Shown here: positions 51,921 through 58,642 of the stretch, one piece after another | Layout: the number at the start of each line of letters is the position of its first letter | How positions within the stretch are numbered: position 1 is the stretch's first letter | Source of the DNA: Massalongia carnosa | Taxonomy: Eukaryota | Length of the DNA: 64,000 nt | Direction of reading: 5' to 3' | Assembly (NCBI GenBank): GCA_965645245.1 | Contig: OZ287081.1 | Coordinates: forward strand, 1,550,001 to 1,614,000 | Program-made: the position numbers and the translations under genes | Notes under the pieces: model-generated | Seen by the model: only the letters and a program-made list of their open reading frames with translations | What the model was told of the DNA's origin: nothing | Database searches by the model: none

Positions 51921-53365
51921 CACGCGGGTGAGAAAAAAATGACAACGACGTGGGGGCCGTTTACCCCAAATTTTGCATGCATTCCCCCTTTTCAATTACG
52001 ATTATACAGTGTTTACACAAGAAAAATTCAATGTAATAACCAGTTATTGCACCTTCACCATCTAGTACTGCCTGCAGTCTATCAGGCATTGATCGCACCC
52101 GTTTATTGATGAAATCCTGAGAAACACGAGTCCAAACCTCCAAAATCAACTCCTTTAGAGTAGCATCATCCTAGTGTGGATATTTACGAAGATGTTGCTT
52201 AATCGGTAGCCAGCAGTTCTCGATTGGAGACAAATCAGGAGAAGACGAACAGTTAAAATAATGATTCAAATGATTGGTTTCCTTCCATGTCTTGACTGCA
52301 TTTCGGGTTCTACCAGTGCCATGTCCGGAGTCCCCATCTTCTTCTAAAACGAAGTCGTCACCTCGATCAAGCCAAGACTTGACGAAGGGATTGAGAATAG
52401 AGTCGATGTAGACCTGATAAGTCATCTTTCCATTGCTATTTCCAGGAACATCGTAAAAGACGAGCTCAGACTTGAAATTATATCCAGCTGCAGCCCAACA
52501 ATGCATTCGTTTTCGATCTTTTCCAGGAGGGGGATCACGATGCTGAATACAATCCCATCTATATCGAGTACCAGGCTGTCTTATGATTCGTAGTTGACCT
52601 TCGGGTCCATATCCAAAATGCACTTCGTCGCTGAATCGAACACGACTCCAGTCTTCGGGTTTGGGGTATTTTTTCAGCATAACACGAGCGAACTCCATTC
52701 TGCGTTCCATTGGAACGTCTTTCAGTCATTCTTTCACACATACGAGGCATTTTTCATAGTCTAATGCGGCTTGAAGAATGCGATGCATAGTACGACCCAC
52801 TACCTCAGCGTTGACCTCGAGAGCAATTTGATCCCAAGTATAATGCTTGCCTTTGAGCATTAAATCATCGTCTTGTAGAATATGATCAGCTTCTCGCACC
52901 TGCTAGCCTGTGATCTTTGATTTTCGACCCCGAGTTTCATTTAGTTCAGTAATATTGTGACGAGTTCGTGTTGGAATACTCGCTTAGCCCCATTAGTTCT
53001 AGCTCAGCCCTGCAGGCTGCCATGACTACTACACGTATAAGCAGTCACCTCCGTAGTAATTTCAACATTATGCCGTCAACTGTTTATTTAACAGTTCGTG
53101 AAGAAGATCCTGCTTAATCATTCTGTATCTAGCTCTTTCCTCAACGTTAAATTCTCTGAAAATATCACGAACATCATGCGAAAGTCATTTCGCAACAAGA
53201 AACTGATGAGCTCCCTGTACCTTGGCCTTTTGAGCGTATCATAGTGAGATTTCGGGGCATTTTATATAGGAATAATGGTGAAAAGGTGGATGAGAACGAA
53301 ATAAAGGGAGAAATTTTGGTGGGGTAAACGCCCCCCACGTTGTCATTTTTTTTGTCACCCGCGTG
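51921..53365 (-). mobile_element. Tc1/IS630-like DNA transposon (DD38E), inactivated
   Basis: About 50-bp imperfect TIRs starting CACGCGGGTG. Transposase remnant (~53260-52040) with FSDEVHF, EEDGDSGH, SPDLSPIENCW, several stops and frameshifts. Flanked by GTTGG on both sides. Confidence 0.92.
52969..53093 (+). mobile_element. Solo LTR (125 bp) nested in the Tc1-like transposase
   Basis: TGTT...AACA ends with 5-bp TSD GTTCG (52964-52968 and 53094-53098). Removing it rejoins transposase SSRT-RHN. Internal TATAAG. Confidence 0.8.
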
Positions 53366-53479
53366 GTTGGGTAACCACCTAGCGGAAGTACATGATACCA
53401 GATTACAGTAAGAGTCTGTATAAACGAGGATTACAGTAAACAGGATTATTTGTCTGTTGATTGACGTTAAATTGCTGTT

Positions 53480-53778
53480 CTATGACCCTTATCGGTGCCG
53501 TTACCTTCGCTTGCGCTGGGGGGGCTTTTAATTGGATGAATTGATTTGAATGCTTGAATTTGATTGGGCATGGGAACGACACAGGTCAGCCCGGGCAGGC
53601 CTAGGCACGTGACTCGGGGTCGGTGCTGAGGTGAGAACCTCATCTTCTAGGCCCGAGGCGTCTGCTGACGCTCAACGATCCGATAGATGATGCCCGACGG
53701 CAGTGCCCGACGGCGATGATCTAGATGGAGGTGCCCGGCGGCGCTCCGGATCGATGCCCTGGTTGACCTGTACGCCCA
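53480..53778. repeat. Split direct repeat B2 (299 bp)
   Basis: Identical by eye to 54010-54308. Confidence 0.95.
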
Positions 53779-53832
53779 TCGCTCACTTAAGGTGGCTTCT
53801 AACTAGCTATGAATCTCGGGTGGCCGAGGGTG

Positions 53833-54009
53833 GGGAAAAGCAGCAAGCACTGACAGCGAGGTAGGGGCACCGAGACAACGTGGGGTCGACGACGAGTCAG
53901 TGAGATGGATGAGGCCGAGTGAGAAGAAGTGGATGAGGAAAGAATTTTCAGAGGGTGATTCTTAATTTACTTTGACTCAGGGGCCTCACGTGACATAGAA
54001 CCATTTCAT
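53833..54009. repeat. Split direct repeat A2 (177 bp)
   Basis: Matches 58166-58342 with one difference (T54005 vs C58338). Confidence 0.95.
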
Positions 54010-54308
54010 CTATGACCCTTATCGGTGCCGTTACCTTCGCTTGCGCTGGGGGGGCTTTTAATTGGATGAATTGATTTGAATGCTTGAATTTGATTGGGCA
54101 TGGGAACGACACAGGTCAGCCCGGGCAGGCCTAGGCACGTGACTCGGGGTCGGTGCTGAGGTGAGAACCTCATCTTCTAGGCCCGAGGCGTCTGCTGACG
54201 CTCAACGATCCGATAGATGATGCCCGACGGCAGTGCCCGACGGCGATGATCTAGATGGAGGTGCCCGGCGGCGCTCCGGATCGATGCCCTGGTTGACCTG
54301 TACGCCCA
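54010..54308. repeat. Split direct repeat B1 (299 bp), contains the YR stop codon
   Basis: Identical by eye to 53480-53778. Confidence 0.95.
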
Positions 54309-55414
54309 ATGGAATGCCCAATTGAGTAGGGGTAGGAGTTTGTAGGATTCGTCTCGGCGACGACAGCACGTGGGACTGCTAGAGGGATGCCTTTTTGAAA
54401 ACTGAGGTTCAAATTGAATAGTGAGGCCTGGGACGTCTGAAAGTATAGCTGAAACGCGTTTGATGACCATCTTCCGAGTCTCTGAATACTCTCATCCAGC
54501 ATCCCGTGGTCGGCGGCGTGTTGTGCTGCTCCTTTTCTGAAGCTGTGTCCCGAGTATGCCGAGTCGTTGATGCCGACGGCTATCAGTCTCTTTTTCAGGG
54601 ATGCTATGACGGAGGCTCTGGTGAATGCGGTGCCGAGACGAAAAAGCGGGGATGTAGATGGCTGAGGATCATTTCTGAAAAGACGCCGTAGTGCTGTCAC
54701 GGGGCAAGTGCTCTCATTGGTCGCTGCCAGCACTATCTGAACTCCTGAGTGATTTGTGTCTGTTTTGCTTCTTTTGAGACGTAATGTCGCGTATTGATCG
54801 TTCTCGGCGAATGAGATGTCACCTCGTGTAGGTTTCAATCTCTGAAAAGATGTCTTCTTACGATCAGCGACAGTGTAGGTGATTTCCCCGAGTCTGAGGA
54901 ACCCTGCCCATGCAACTTTGAATGTCGCGTCGATGTTGAGGTCTTCGGCCGAATGAGCGGGAATACTGGTGATTTTTGTCAGTAATTCTTTTGAAATGGG
55001 TAGGCGTCTTCTTTTTGTCTGAGAAAAGATCCTTTTTCCCCCTTTCAGCATCAATTGAAGTCTCGGCCCCTCGAATGGGGTGAGGCCGTATCCTCGGTCT
55101 ACATGGTATGATCTGAGGCCGGCGAGGTAGCTCGCTGCCGTCTCTGGTTTTATCTTTCCCTGCTTGGGTGTGCCGCCCCCGTATAGTCGACCGGCTAGCC
55201 ATTCCTCGAGGGACTCGGTTGTTGCAGGCCACGACGTGCGTCCCGTCGTCGCGCAGAATGCCTCGTATGAGTCGATCGCCGTCCCGTACCCTTTTCTCGT
55301 GTCCGCCGAGTGTCCGTGCCAGACGAGACGTTTTACCAGGGCTGACCCTGGTGTGGAGGATAGGTAGGTGGAGGGAGGTTCATCGAATTGTATGGGTTCT
55401 GCCAATGAGGGCAA
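54251..55414 (-). CDS. Tyrosine recombinase of the Ngaro-type element (no N-terminal ATG)
   Basis: Catalytic set FLRLGE (R), RSKTD (K), GHSFRKG (HxxR), GRW, FQLY (Y). N-terminal binding domain YLAGLRSYH. Confidence 0.95.
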   Translation of the reverse strand: MPSLAEPIQFDEPPSTYLSSTPGSALVKRLVWHGHSADTRKGYGTAIDSYEAFCATTGRTSWPATTESLEEWLAGRLYGGGTPKQGKIKPETAASYLAGLRSYHVDRGYGLTPFEGPRLQLMLKGGKRIFSQTKRRRLPISKELLTKITSIPAHSAEDLNIDATFKVAWAGFLRLGEITYTVADRKKTSFQRLKPTRGDISFAENDQYATLRLKRSKTDTNHSGVQIVLAATNESTCPVTALRRLFRNDPQPSTSPLFRLGTAFTRASVIASLKKRLIAVGINDSAYSGHSFRKGAAQHAADHGMLDESIQRLGRWSSNAFQLYFQTSQASLFNLNLSFQKGIPLAVPRAVVAETNPTNSYPYSIGHSIGRTGQPGHRSGAPPGTSI

Positions 55415-57036
55415 AAGTTAGCCAATCTTTCATCATCAAAACGTGACAGGGCATCTGCTAGTCCATTGGAAGTGCCACTGATCCATTGACAACGTAGTAC
55501 GATGTCCCACTTTGCAGCTATGGACAGTATTTCTCGTAGAGGCGCGTTGGCCGGTCCCTTGAGGGTTAGATTCGTGAATCCTGTGTATGCTGTGTTGCTG
55601 TCGGTAAAGACAAGGATCTGTCGATGTCGCCATGTCGGCGCCCATTTCTGAAGGATTAGAAGGATAGCTTCGACTTCTCGGACGTTTATGCTCGGTGATC
55701 CTTCCTGATTGAGGACTAGGACTCGGGCCCTACATGCGTTTTTTTGATTCACGAGCTCGTTGTCTTGTTGAAAATAGCCTCCGAGACCCGTGAGGCATGC
55801 ATCCGTATGCACCTTGATCGTGTCTCGTGTTGACGTCTCGAAGAAGACAATACCGTTGAAGTCCACTAGAAGTTTGTTCCACCAGATGAGATCCTGTCTG
55901 ACCCATGTGGGAATTCTTCTTTTGACCCGACGATGACTGCCCGAGGGAAATGAGGCTATAAAATTCCAGAATAATCGTAAGAAGACTCGGCCCAATTTGA
56001 CTGCCTGTGCGCAGAAGCTTAGGAAGCCCGCTATTGACTGCATGTCGCCGAGGCTGATTGTCGTCTCGTTTAGTGCCTTTGTAGTGATGATTCTCGCTTT
56101 TTCCAGCTTGTCCGCTGGCAGACGAATAAGACTGTTGATGGTGTCGACCTCGAGTCCGAAGACTGTCGCTGTCGTTCCCTCGGCGTCTTTTGAGTCGTTT
56201 CTCGGGATGCCAAGAATGTCGGTGAGAATGTTGTAGGCTTTTGTTTCTTGGTGCAATCGTTCTGACGATGTCTCGGATGGGAAAATTGCAACGAAGTCGT
56301 CTAGATAGTGATGTAATCTCCATTGTAGAAAGGATTCCAAAATCCAATGAAAGCCTTCCGCAAAAATATTGAAGATGAACGGGGCCGTCGACAGTCCGAA
56401 CGAAAGGCATGTCTCGGTGTAGAATTCGTCATTCCATCCGAAACCCAGAAGCCATTGATGATGAGGTGCGACGGGAACGTTTCGAAAGGCGTCTTTGACG
56501 TCTCTTTTCACTATGACAGCACCTTTGCCCGCTGACAGAATCAATTGAATAATGTCGTCGAGTCTGGCGTATTGTAATTTGGATGCCTCTTCTGGAATGT
56601 TGTCGTTGACTGATGTTTGATTGGGATGAGACAGATGATGAATGCGTCGCCATCCTCCGTCATGTTTCGGGACCAAGCCGAGGGGGGAGGCCACAAATGG
56701 CTGACTCGGGGCGGCTATTCGTCTGACTCGGCCCTTCCTGAGGTCCTCTTGGAGCTTATTCTCGATCGTTTCCGGGTCCTCATTCGCTGATGTCAGATTT
56801 TTTTCGATCCGAAGGATGTCTGTGGGGCCTTCGTATCCGATTTGTACTCCGAAACGAAGGATCATGGGCAGATGGACTCGGAGGGGGCCCGGATACTCTT
56901 GAAGTAGAGTTGCCCATGCGGACGGTACGAGGGGAGATGGGCTGTCTTTCAAACGCTGACGAGATGCGTCTACGAGTTGAAACGAAGGGATTGTATTTGG
57001 TCTGATTGGTGCAGGTAAGCAGGGATGGGACGTCAT
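55333..57036 (-). CDS. Reverse transcriptase + RNase H of the Ngaro-type element
   Basis: RT motifs VPKHDGGWRRIHHLS, KRDVKDAFR, LSFGLSTAP, HYLDDF. RNase H motifs TDAC, EVEA, FTDS, ADALSR. Confidence 0.96.
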   Translation of the reverse strand: MTSHPCLPAPIRPNTIPSFQLVDASRQRLKDSPSPLVPSAWATLLQEYPGPLRVHLPMILRFGVQIGYEGPTDILRIEKNLTSANEDPETIENKLQEDLRKGRVRRIAAPSQPFVASPLGLVPKHDGGWRRIHHLSHPNQTSVNDNIPEEASKLQYARLDDIIQLILSAGKGAVIVKRDVKDAFRNVPVAPHHQWLLGFGWNDEFYTETCLSFGLSTAPFIFNIFAEGFHWILESFLQWRLHHYLDDFVAIFPSETSSERLHQETKAYNILTDILGIPRNDSKDAEGTTATVFGLEVDTINSLIRLPADKLEKARIITTKALNETTISLGDMQSIAGFLSFCAQAVKLGRVFLRLFWNFIASFPSGSHRRVKRRIPTWVRQDLIWWNKLLVDFNGIVFFETSTRDTIKVHTDACLTGLGGYFQQDNELVNQKNACRARVLVLNQEGSPSINVREVEAILLILQKWAPTWRHRQILVFTDSNTAYTGFTNLTLKGPANAPLREILSIAAKWDIVLRCQWISGTSNGLADALSRFDDERLANFCPHWQNPYNSMNLPPPTYPPHQGQPW

Positions 57037-57081
57037 GAATTCAGCTATTGAAGCTATTCTACTGCCTCCTGCACCAACCCC

Positions 57082-58095
57082 CTATTTCTTCGTTGGGCAT
57101 GTCTTCTGGCCATGCCCAGCCGCGCCGCACGATTTACATTTGTGCTGTCGGTAGCACGACGGCCAGGTGCAGGTGCCGCTGTTGTACTTGTCGCAGATTT
57201 CCCCCGCTGCCTTCTCGGCCCTATCGGCCCTGTCTCCTCTCGGGGTCGGTCGCCGGGACGGCGGGGATCGTGAGCGGCGACGGCGTAGGACTGTGAGGGG
57301 GGTGCAGAATCGAGCTTGGAATTCGTCGGGCATTTTCCATTGGGATGCGTCGGATGGCTGAGACGCGATGATGTGAGTGTGGGTTTCGATGGCGAGGGGG
57401 AGGACTGCTTCCTGCCACTCGTACACCTTGGCCAGCGTGAGGATTTTTCCGTGGAATGCCGACATGGTGGCGTGAAGCTGTTGACTCGATTTCCCGAAAA
57501 GACTGACCATGATCGAGGTGTAGTTGATGAAGCTCTCGGTCCAGACGTCATGAACTGTCTTTCCGAAATCTTTGTAGGTCCCGGATGCCTTTCTCAACCT
57601 CAAGGCGCCGTCTTCGATGCCGATGCGGTCCTGATCCTTGTAGGACTCGTATTGCATGCCGTGCATGTGTCGGAGGCGGGAGAGGTTGATGGCTTTGAAT
57701 TTATTTGAAAAGATCTTGATGATCTCGTCCTGTGGTAGGCCCGCGAAACGGGGTGCTATACTTCTTACTTCGAGAGGGATCTCACCTAGGTCCTCGTCGT
57801 CATCGCCGACGACACGACTCGGCTTGCCAGCAGGAATGACGGCCGCTATTCGGGCGTCAGATTCTCGGCGCATGCAGTCGATTTCTAGCTGCATTTTTTC
57901 CACCTCCTTCTCGGCGACCAATGCCTTGGACTCGGCAATTCTGGCCTCAGCCTCGGCCGCCTTCGCTTCTGCCTCGGCTTTCTTCTTTTGTAGGGCGAAG
58001 ATTTGATTGGACTGGGCCTGCGTCAATCCGACAATCTCCTGGGAGTCGGGGACTATGTCGTCCATCGGGGTGCTTTGGGAACGGGTGTTCGTCAT
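57082..58095 (-). CDS. Gag-like ORF1 of the Ngaro-type element (coiled coil + C-terminal zinc fingers)
   Basis: ATG at 58095, coiled coil KKAEAEAKAAEAEAR, C-terminal CDKYNSGTCTWPSCYRQHKCKSCGAAGHGQKTC (CCCH + CCHC). Confidence 0.9.
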   Translation of the reverse strand: MTNTRSQSTPMDDIVPDSQEIVGLTQAQSNQIFALQKKKAEAEAKAAEAEARIAESKALVAEKEVEKMQLEIDCMRRESDARIAAVIPAGKPSRVVGDDDEDLGEIPLEVRSIAPRFAGLPQDEIIKIFSNKFKAINLSRLRHMHGMQYESYKDQDRIGIEDGALRLRKASGTYKDFGKTVHDVWTESFINYTSIMVSLFGKSSQQLHATMSAFHGKILTLAKVYEWQEAVLPLAIETHTHIIASQPSDASQWKMPDEFQARFCTPLTVLRRRRSRSPPSRRPTPRGDRADRAEKAAGEICDKYNSGTCTWPSCYRQHKCKSCGAAGHGQKTCPTKK

Positions 58096-58165
58096 TGGGA
58101 AAAAGCACCGACAGCGAGGTAGGGGCACCGAGGACAACGTGAGGTCGACGACGAGTCAGTGAGAT

Positions 58166-58342
58166 GGGAAAAGCAGCAAGCACTGACAGCGAGGTAGGGG
58201 CACCGAGACAACGTGGGGTCGACGACGAGTCAGTGAGATGGATGAGGCCGAGTGAGAAGAAGTGGATGAGGAAAGAATTTTCAGAGGGTGATTCTTAATT
58301 TACTTTGACTCAGGGGCCTCACGTGACATAGAACCATCTCAT
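58166..58342. repeat. Split direct repeat A1 (177 bp), 5' end of the element
   Basis: Matches 53833-54009. Confidence 0.95.
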
Positions 58343-58642
58343 TTAGTTGTTGTTTAACCGTTTGATTATCGTAAGTAAACGATTGGCGTACTGTTAACTG
58401 TAATATGATACAATATTTCCGCTGAGGTACTTATTTTTAGCTAGCGTACCCTTTAGTTTGTAGATATTTGATAATCGTTTCTAGCTCTAACTCCATACCA
58501 TTGATTGGTGATGATCCCATTTTTTCTCTATGCCTCGCCTATTCCGTACGCCATACACCTTACCTGAACCCCTCCAGCTCCAGGGAGATTTTGTTGAATA
58601 TTCCGTAATCTTTGCCCTGTGAATTCAGCTTGCATCAACGTA

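Follow-up and report, generated by a model that had tools for sequence, protein, structure and literature searches.

How does a retrotransposon make its polymerase when a single stop codon separates gag from pol in one and the same reading frame? The question is raised by an element on the minus strand of a stretch of Massalongia carnosa DNA, 64,000 nucleotides (nt) of contig OZ287081.1 (positions 1,550,001 to 1,614,000), which we call the window and in whose coordinates all positions below are given. The element, a tyrosine recombinase (YR) retrotransposon of the Ngaro type, lies at 53479..58345, and its gag ends in a UAG codon (57082..57084) that stands in frame with the open reading frame (ORF) for reverse transcriptase (RT) and RNase H (RH). 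An earlier note on the window had proposed that this UAG, together with a long stem-loop 3' of it, is a signal for programmed readthrough. The comparisons reported here support that interpretation: the gag-stop-pol layout is conserved among relatives, their gag stops stand in contexts predicted to be leaky, and where such contexts are lacking a stem-loop tends to be predicted. We put the probability that Pol of this element is made by programmed stop-codon readthrough at roughly three in four (0.74).

Gag and pol in one frame across a single stop

The gag ORF (57085..58095; all features of the element are on the minus strand) encodes 337 amino acids (aa), was delimited from ORF calls and from tblastn homology to gag in relatives, and closes with the codons AAG AAA. 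Its C-terminus is a CCHC zinc knuckle, CKSCGAAGHGQKTC, which Pfam matched weakly (zf-CCHC_6, E 0.027, below cut-off). The stop that follows has AA before it and G after it (UAG-GGG-GUU). From there the pol ORF (55333..57081, 582 codons) runs to a TAA at 55335-55333; Pfam assigned to it RVT_1 (E 1.5e-12) and, slightly below the cut-off, RT_RNaseH (E 1.6e-4), and a protein search returned 89 pol homologues, the named ones coming from Penicillium, Talaromyces and Fusarium. Between the TAG (57084-57082) and the first ATG of the pol frame (57036-57034) lie 15 sense codons, GVGAGGSRIASIAEF, in the frame shared with the RT/RH ORF. Every coordinate that the earlier note had given for this arrangement was correct, and the Gag-RT-RH reading frame of about 920 aa that it had predicted was recovered: read with X at the stop, gag, stop and pol add up to 337+1+582 = 920 residues. 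Contigs from sequencing runs X7 and X9, which cover 56884-57399 and 57041-57375, depart from the window sequence at 57136, 57223 and 57253 and nowhere within 57004-57084, so that TAG and stem are unchanged. Run X10 gave no contig here, and those of X11 were two short pieces away from the junction.

Relatives of the element were collected as 80 loci from a metagenome scan and five from a GTDB scan, with pol 35-52% identical to that of the window; removal of the duplicates L008, L067, L082 and L084 left 82 distinct loci, the window included. A stop opens the pol ORF in 72 of these, the other 10 running off the 5' end of their contigs, and 65 of the 82 were counted as informative, having at least 100 codons upstream of the pol-opening stop. 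Two ORFs in one frame with a single stop between them are kept in 43 of the 65 informative loci, where a pol-frame ORF of at least 100 codons ends exactly at the pol-opening stop, and none of the 65 has a gag-pol fusion. The frame would be expected to be shared in one third of cases (binomial p=6.5e-8, a value that ignores shared ancestry). On the pol tree (67 rows), the gag-stop-pol layout is present in each of the two major clades. The gag stop of the 43 in-frame loci is TGA in 28, TAG in 11 and TAA in four, and it differs between close relatives (L003 TGA and L006 TAG; L049 TAA and L061 TGA; L009 TAG and L007 TGA). Between the stop and the conserved R-P-N-T motif lie 5 to 142 codons in the 26 loci compared, and this stretch is open in every one of them.

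As regards the origin of these loci, many of the metagenome relatives make up an entire contig of 3-5 kb, roughly the length of one element. The GTDB relatives, only five loci, are all in bacterial metagenome-assembled genomes (MAGs); fungal-type retrotransposon contigs (L081-L085 and P0034) were found in MAGs labelled Kribbellaceae, Solirubrobacteraceae, Bacteroidetes and Chloroflexi, a placement that probably reflects eukaryotic contamination of the bins. No relative of the element was found in the viral contigs scanned.

Stop contexts and stem-loops at the junction

The surroundings of the gag stop were compared with those of the pol stops in the same elements (n=35; TAA 14, TAG 11, TGA 10). 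C comes directly after 29/43 gag stops versus 7/35 pol stops (Fisher p=3.4e-5), and TGA makes up 28/43 of the former and 10/35 of the latter (Fisher p=0.0016). Stop-CUA occurs in 8/40 in-frame loci, three of them being CUAG, and AA precedes the gag stop in 12/43. UGA-CUAG is the stop context of L033 and L040. The hexamer CARYYA, the consensus that favours readthrough, follows the stop exactly in 3/40 (for example AAG-AAA-UAG-CAA-UUA in L006), with two more cases contributed by the truncated loci L009 and L034. For fungi and other eukaryotes, TGA is described as the leakiest stop, and C, CT or CTAG after a stop and AA before it as promoting readthrough (in the available part of PMC10085805). 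Judged by sequence, the gag stops stand in surroundings of a type known to favour readthrough and different from those of ordinary termination in the same elements.

In the window, the junction is predicted to fold into a long stem-loop, seen in both the minimum free energy (MFE) and the centroid structures. Its 5' arm (57062..57079) begins 2 nt past the stop and codes for a non-conserved linker, GVGAGGS, while its 3' arm (57004..57022, with a bulged A at 57016) lies on codons of a conserved N-terminal motif of pol, P-C-L-P-A-P-I, as seen from the fold and the alignment. The arms that the earlier note had described (57077-57062 and 57022-57006) were found again by RNAfold, which lengthens the helix from 16 to 18 bp (57079-57062 with 57022-57004, including one bulged A and, in the inner part, one G-U) and adds pairs of G57082 and G57081 with C57000 and C56999; the nested hairpin and the first pol ATG (57034..57036), said in the note to lie within the 39-nt loop, are there in the prediction as well. 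The MFE of the junction is -34.5 kcal/mol versus a mean of -21.8 for shuffled sequences (z -3.92), none of 200 dinucleotide shuffles being equally stable. Rfam gave no family match in 53400-58400.

Folding was then extended to 41 in-frame loci, using the first 90 nt past the stop and, as controls, three stretches of pol per locus. The median z at the junction was -0.66 versus 0.04 in the controls (Mann-Whitney U test, p=0.039), while raw energies did not differ. Where the base following the stop is not C, mean z was -1.52 (n=12), versus -0.32 where it is C (n=28; Mann-Whitney U test, p=0.014). In the clade of the window (L016, L005, L007/L010, L003, L004 and L017), a stretch beginning 5-11 nt past the stop pairs with motif codons 60-140 nt downstream, which are those of the conserved C-x-P-A-P / P-R-P-N, and the arm sequences differ among loci. 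No stem-loop was found at the junctions of L006 (UAG-CAA-UUA), whose fold reaches -5.9 kcal/mol, and L009 (UAG-CAG-CUA).

Because the linker after the stop does not align, column-wise covariation was replaced by an arm-swap test on 17 near-clade loci (leaving out L008, L010 and L011), in which the first 27 nt past the stop were paired with the 30 nt around the motif, the two windows being 15-120 nt apart. Duplexes between arms of the same locus had a mean energy of -15.98 kcal/mol versus -12.71 kcal/mol for swapped arms (permutation p=1.4e-4); the duplex of the window, at -32.0 kcal/mol, ranked second and first of 17. The covarying stem named as a check in the earlier note is borne out to the extent that arms pair best with their own partner, the support being at the level of whole arms and not of aligned base pairs, in loci that are not independent of each other. 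With this qualification, the stem architecture recurs, with arms that fit each other. The z-score of -3.9 in the window, the arm-swap result and the association with a base other than C after the stop all point to a stable 3' structure that comparison supports.

Readthrough weighed against other routes to Pol

Several results weigh against programmed readthrough with the stem as a stimulator. In 22 of the 65 informative loci the layout has no match, since they carry extra stops or a gag in another frame (L014, L019, L028, L032, L038, L052 and L078 are off-frame or broken); we read these, without proof, as decayed copies, some of the breaks being visibly recent, with the off-frame L052 and the in-frame L053 0.01 apart in branch length on the pol tree. 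A distant relative from the protein search, P0085 (1365 aa, 30% identity), encodes its gag, which includes a CCHC knuckle, together with RT/RH and YR as a continuous ORF, so the in-frame stop is not universal and single-ORF and stop-separated forms coexist in the wider group. The loci are mutually related, so that the p-values overstate their independence. L018 and L023, which have G after the stop, show no clear cognate stem. The spacer between stop and stem is 2-4 nt, shorter than in classical readthrough stimulators, where it is roughly 8 nt. Part of the stability of the stem comes free, because Gly (GGN) codons face Pro (CCN) codons. In a control that preserves the peptide, with synonymous codons redrawn from the element's own codon usage in 300 versions per locus, 11/300 recodings of the window were as stable as the native sequence, and 41/300 for L016; the counts for the other loci were 0 for L005, 2 for L003, 2 for L017, 6 for L007, 16 for L004, 74 for L006 and 246 for L020. 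The stability of the stem exceeds only moderately what the encoded peptide gives. Finally, Tca2, a long terminal repeat (LTR) retrotransposon of Candida with an in-frame UGA and a predicted pseudoknot, gave no readthrough in an S. cerevisiae reporter and has a cryptic promoter at the junction, according to the accessible part of PMC2194720.

An alternative is that readthrough is real and driven by the stop context alone, the stem serving RNA packaging, dimerisation or a step of replication, or being a by-product of the Gly and Pro codons. The peptide-preserving control, moderate for the window and not significant for L016, is what such an explanation would lead one to expect, as are the short spacer and a 3' arm fixed by a conserved protein motif. 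However, own arms pair better than swapped ones even though one and the same motif is encoded by all the 3' arms; the 5' arm, for its part, sits in a linker that, in the alignment, is otherwise free to vary. Structure is, moreover, associated with the absence of C after the stop, and it is missing in L006, where the context is UAG-CAA-UUA. We consider a stem without a role in readthrough unlikely, while giving it more weight than the alternatives that follow.

Pol could also be made separately, from AUG 57036 or a non-AUG start reached through an internal promoter, an internal ribosome entry site (IRES)-like structure, leaky scanning or termination-reinitiation, in which case the shared frame would be incidental. 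In favour of this are the position of ATG 57036 in the loop of a strong predicted structure, the ATG that the window and 23 other in-frame loci (24/43) have ahead of the conserved start of pol, and the case of Tca2, with its cryptic junction promoter and lack of reporter readthrough. Against it, 19 of the 43 in-frame loci lack any ATG from the gag stop to the conserved pol start; the first that they offer comes 39-353 codons into the frame, within the RT domain. In the window, the M of E-F-M-T-S-H aligns with a column of I, L or M (Q-F-I, E-F-I, K-F-I and S-F-L in relatives) and the preceding Phe is conserved; given this conservation upstream of ATG 57036, the codon looks like an ordinary internal one and is probably not the true start of pol. 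Separate initiation would require no shared frame, yet 43 of 65 loci share it with exactly one stop; nor would it create selection for a C following that stop. Taken together, these observations make an independent start of Pol improbable.

A further way of obtaining Gag-Pol would be removal or bypass of the stop in the RNA, by a short intron or by editing, with translation from a processed mRNA. Three gene models from Penicillium and Fusarium annotations (P0033, P0073 and P0052) indeed join gag to pol by omitting the region of zinc knuckle, stop and linker. The omitted parts look like predicted introns placed to avoid the in-frame stop, that is, work-arounds of the gene predictor, and P0052 matches, past its omitted part, the locus L020, an in-frame-stop element with UAG-CAA. 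In the window, splicing across the gag stop was rejected by eye: the only GT...TAG pair spanning it (57130-57082, 49 nt) has the wrong phase, breaking the frame, and deletes half of the zinc knuckle. The contigs of the sequencing runs, which are of DNA type, showed no splice joints. RNA processing is therefore a very improbable source of Gag-Pol. The presence of a single copy in the window might suggest that the element is dead and its TAG a nonsense mutation of its own. This can practically be dismissed, since the in-frame stop is found across the family, the terminal repeats are almost identical, none of the three ORFs is broken and the contigs of X7 and X9 have the same TAG.

Programmed readthrough, the explanation we favour, would proceed as follows. 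Full-length RNA would be translated from the gag AUG, with most ribosomes terminating at the UAG (57084-57082) to give the 337-aa Gag, and a minority inserting an amino acid there and continuing in frame to give a Gag-RT/RNase H fusion of about 920 aa. With no protease in the element to cut it, the fusion would remain whole; it would join particles via its Gag part, resulting in a low Pol:Gag ratio. The likely stimulators in this copy would be the bases that flank the stop, AA ahead of it and G behind it, and the 18-bp stem-loop starting 2-4 nt downstream, which would be at the mRNA entrance of the ribosome while the UAG occupies the A site; relatives would use UGA-CUA or UAG-CAR-YYA in place of the stem. 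Readthrough itself, its efficiency and its stimulation by the stem are what we infer from the anatomy of the junction and its conservation. We also lean slightly towards a broader proposal, in which a deeply diverged clade of fungal Ngaro elements uses readthrough and has repeatedly swapped its stimulator between short contexts (UGA-CUA(G), UAG-CAR-YYA and UGA-CGG) and a long-range stem-loop whose 3' arm is pinned to conserved pol codons while the 5' arm is free. With a recombinase in the -1 frame that mostly lacks an ATG of its own, these elements would then depend on two non-standard decoding or processing events.

Gag-Pol readthrough is textbook knowledge for gammaretroviruses and is known in a few fungal LTR elements. 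Retroviruses of the murine leukaemia virus (MuLV) type share with the present element an in-frame UAG between gag and pol, a G after the stop, a purine-rich start of the downstream sequence, a stable 3' structure and the logic of a low Gag-Pol:Gag ratio. The MuLV signal is a pseudoknot about 8 nt downstream of the UAG, whereas here there is a long bulged stem-loop 2-4 nt downstream, for which RNAfold gave nested structures only, no pseudoknot search having been made. The Ngaro element further differs in being of the YR type, without protease or DDE integrase, so that the fusion would remain unprocessed. Extended 3' stem-loops that stimulate readthrough have reportedly been described by Firth and colleagues (2011) in alphaviruses, coltiviruses and some plant viruses. 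As in those RNA viruses, a long-range stem stands just 3' of the putative leaky stop, and its sequence varies while the architecture is kept; there, in contrast, the genes are replicase genes and the stops mostly UGA, while here the 3' arm lies on conserved pol codons, the 5' arm in a free linker, and the spacing is shorter.

Closer in terms of host are the fungal elements Tj1, Tosmo and Tcry1 (GAA-TGA-CT) and Tca2 of Candida, which likewise have gag, stop and pol in one frame, but which belong to Ty3/gypsy or Ty1/copia and have protease and integrase. The TGA-CT/CTA context of the fungal LTR elements, as given in the portion of PMC10085805 at hand, is the commonest among the relatives of the Ngaro element, and the same portion reports the gag stop of Tj1 to be essential for transposition. 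For DIRS and Ngaro elements, the ORFs are described as overlapping or frameshifted (PMC3783388 and PMC6681497, as far as the available text goes), and no statement on an in-frame gag stop was found in the available parts of these two sources and of PMC8547959. Our literature search, which did not cover the founding Ngaro paper (Goodwin and Poulter 2004) or the Poulter reviews, so that a prior mention is possible, found no account of readthrough or an in-frame gag stop for Ngaro, DIRS or tyrosine recombinase elements; nor, again with the founding paper not covered, did it find one of how the YR retrotransposons (DIRS/Ngaro) set their Gag:Pol ratio. The junction would bring a recoding signal of a known kind into an order of retroelements for which we found no record of one.

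If programmed readthrough is correct, recoding reaches a third major order of retroelements, and the relatives offer, on one homologous backbone, a naturally occurring set of fungal readthrough signals of the sequence as well as the structure type, which would be ideal for dissecting stop leakiness in filamentous fungi. It would also explain why fungal annotations invent introns across such junctions or call pol an orphan ORF, and it would bring into view a second expression problem, that of the -1-frame recombinase.

The host element, its recombinase and neighbouring features

The element carries split direct repeats in the order A1-[gag, RT/RH, YR]-B1-A2-B2, as delimited from direct-repeat families, ORFs and domains. 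Repeat A1 (58166..58345), at the 5' terminus, is 99% identical to A2 (53833..54012; blastn 98.9% over 180 nt), and B1 (54009..54308), which adjoins A2, is 100% identical to B2 (53479..53778) at the 3' terminus. The A1-[ORFs]-B1A2B2 layout and the gene order gag, RT/RH, YR are those given for Ngaro elements in the available part of PMC8547959, and the match places the gag-pol junction within a complete Ngaro-type YR retrotransposon, as the earlier note had guessed. With its terminal repeats 99% and 100% identical and its three ORFs intact, the element (58345-53479) is evidently complete and young, and it is present in one copy in the window. Gag-pol has RT and RNase H and, by Pfam, no methyltransferase, protease or DDE integrase; at E<=0.1, nothing was found in it beyond RVT_1, RT_RNaseH, the weak zinc knuckle and a weak RVT_3. 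Membership of Ngaro is read from the repeat layout and the gene order, the recombinase domain being weakly detected.

The putative tyrosine recombinase is encoded by an ORF at 54251..55417, in the -1 frame relative to pol and overlapping its end by 85 nt, with its first ATG at codon 122. Pfam matches to it, Phage_integrase (E 0.005; 17 bits versus a cut-off of 27.1) and a SAM-like N-domain (E 0.025), were both below cut-off, and a search of PDB sequences gave no match; in the translation, the motifs HSFR (H-x-x-R) and GRW...Y are visible, with the Y downstream. The first ATG falls after the weakly matched SAM-like N-domain (residues 35-105). Of 60 distinct loci with a homologous ORF, 50 have it in the -1 frame relative to pol, eight in the pol frame and two in the +1 frame; these ORFs overlap the end of pol, and most of them have no early ATG.

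A conserved X_XXY_YYZ heptamer for a -1 frameshift into the recombinase frame was not found in the 17 near-clade loci and the window region. The C-terminal pol motif A-N-x-C-P-H/T/S-W-Q (window 55425-55397) is encoded by GCT AAY in 17/17 near-clade loci, the Ala codon being GCT in each, while TGG CAG is used in 15/17. The resulting GCTAAC, pyrimidine-rich stretch and CAG, at the point where the recombinase frame opens, resemble a fungal branch point and 3' splice site. A phase-matched ATG with a GTGAGG donor exists at 58329-58317 of the window and has an equivalent only in L021 among 13 loci, so a spliced recombinase mRNA was not supported.

In the leader, inside and just past A1 (58103-58241), two tandem copies of a unit of about 65-75 nt stand immediately before the gag ATG; these copies, 58103-58167 and 58178-58241, are 95% identical, and one further copy lies in A2 (53845-53908). 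Outside the element, about 750 bp past its 3' end, an open frame of 184 codons on the minus strand (52171-52725) matches DDE_3 (Pfam E 5e-10 for the 179-aa form that begins with ATG) and looks like the remnant of a Tc1/mariner-type transposase.

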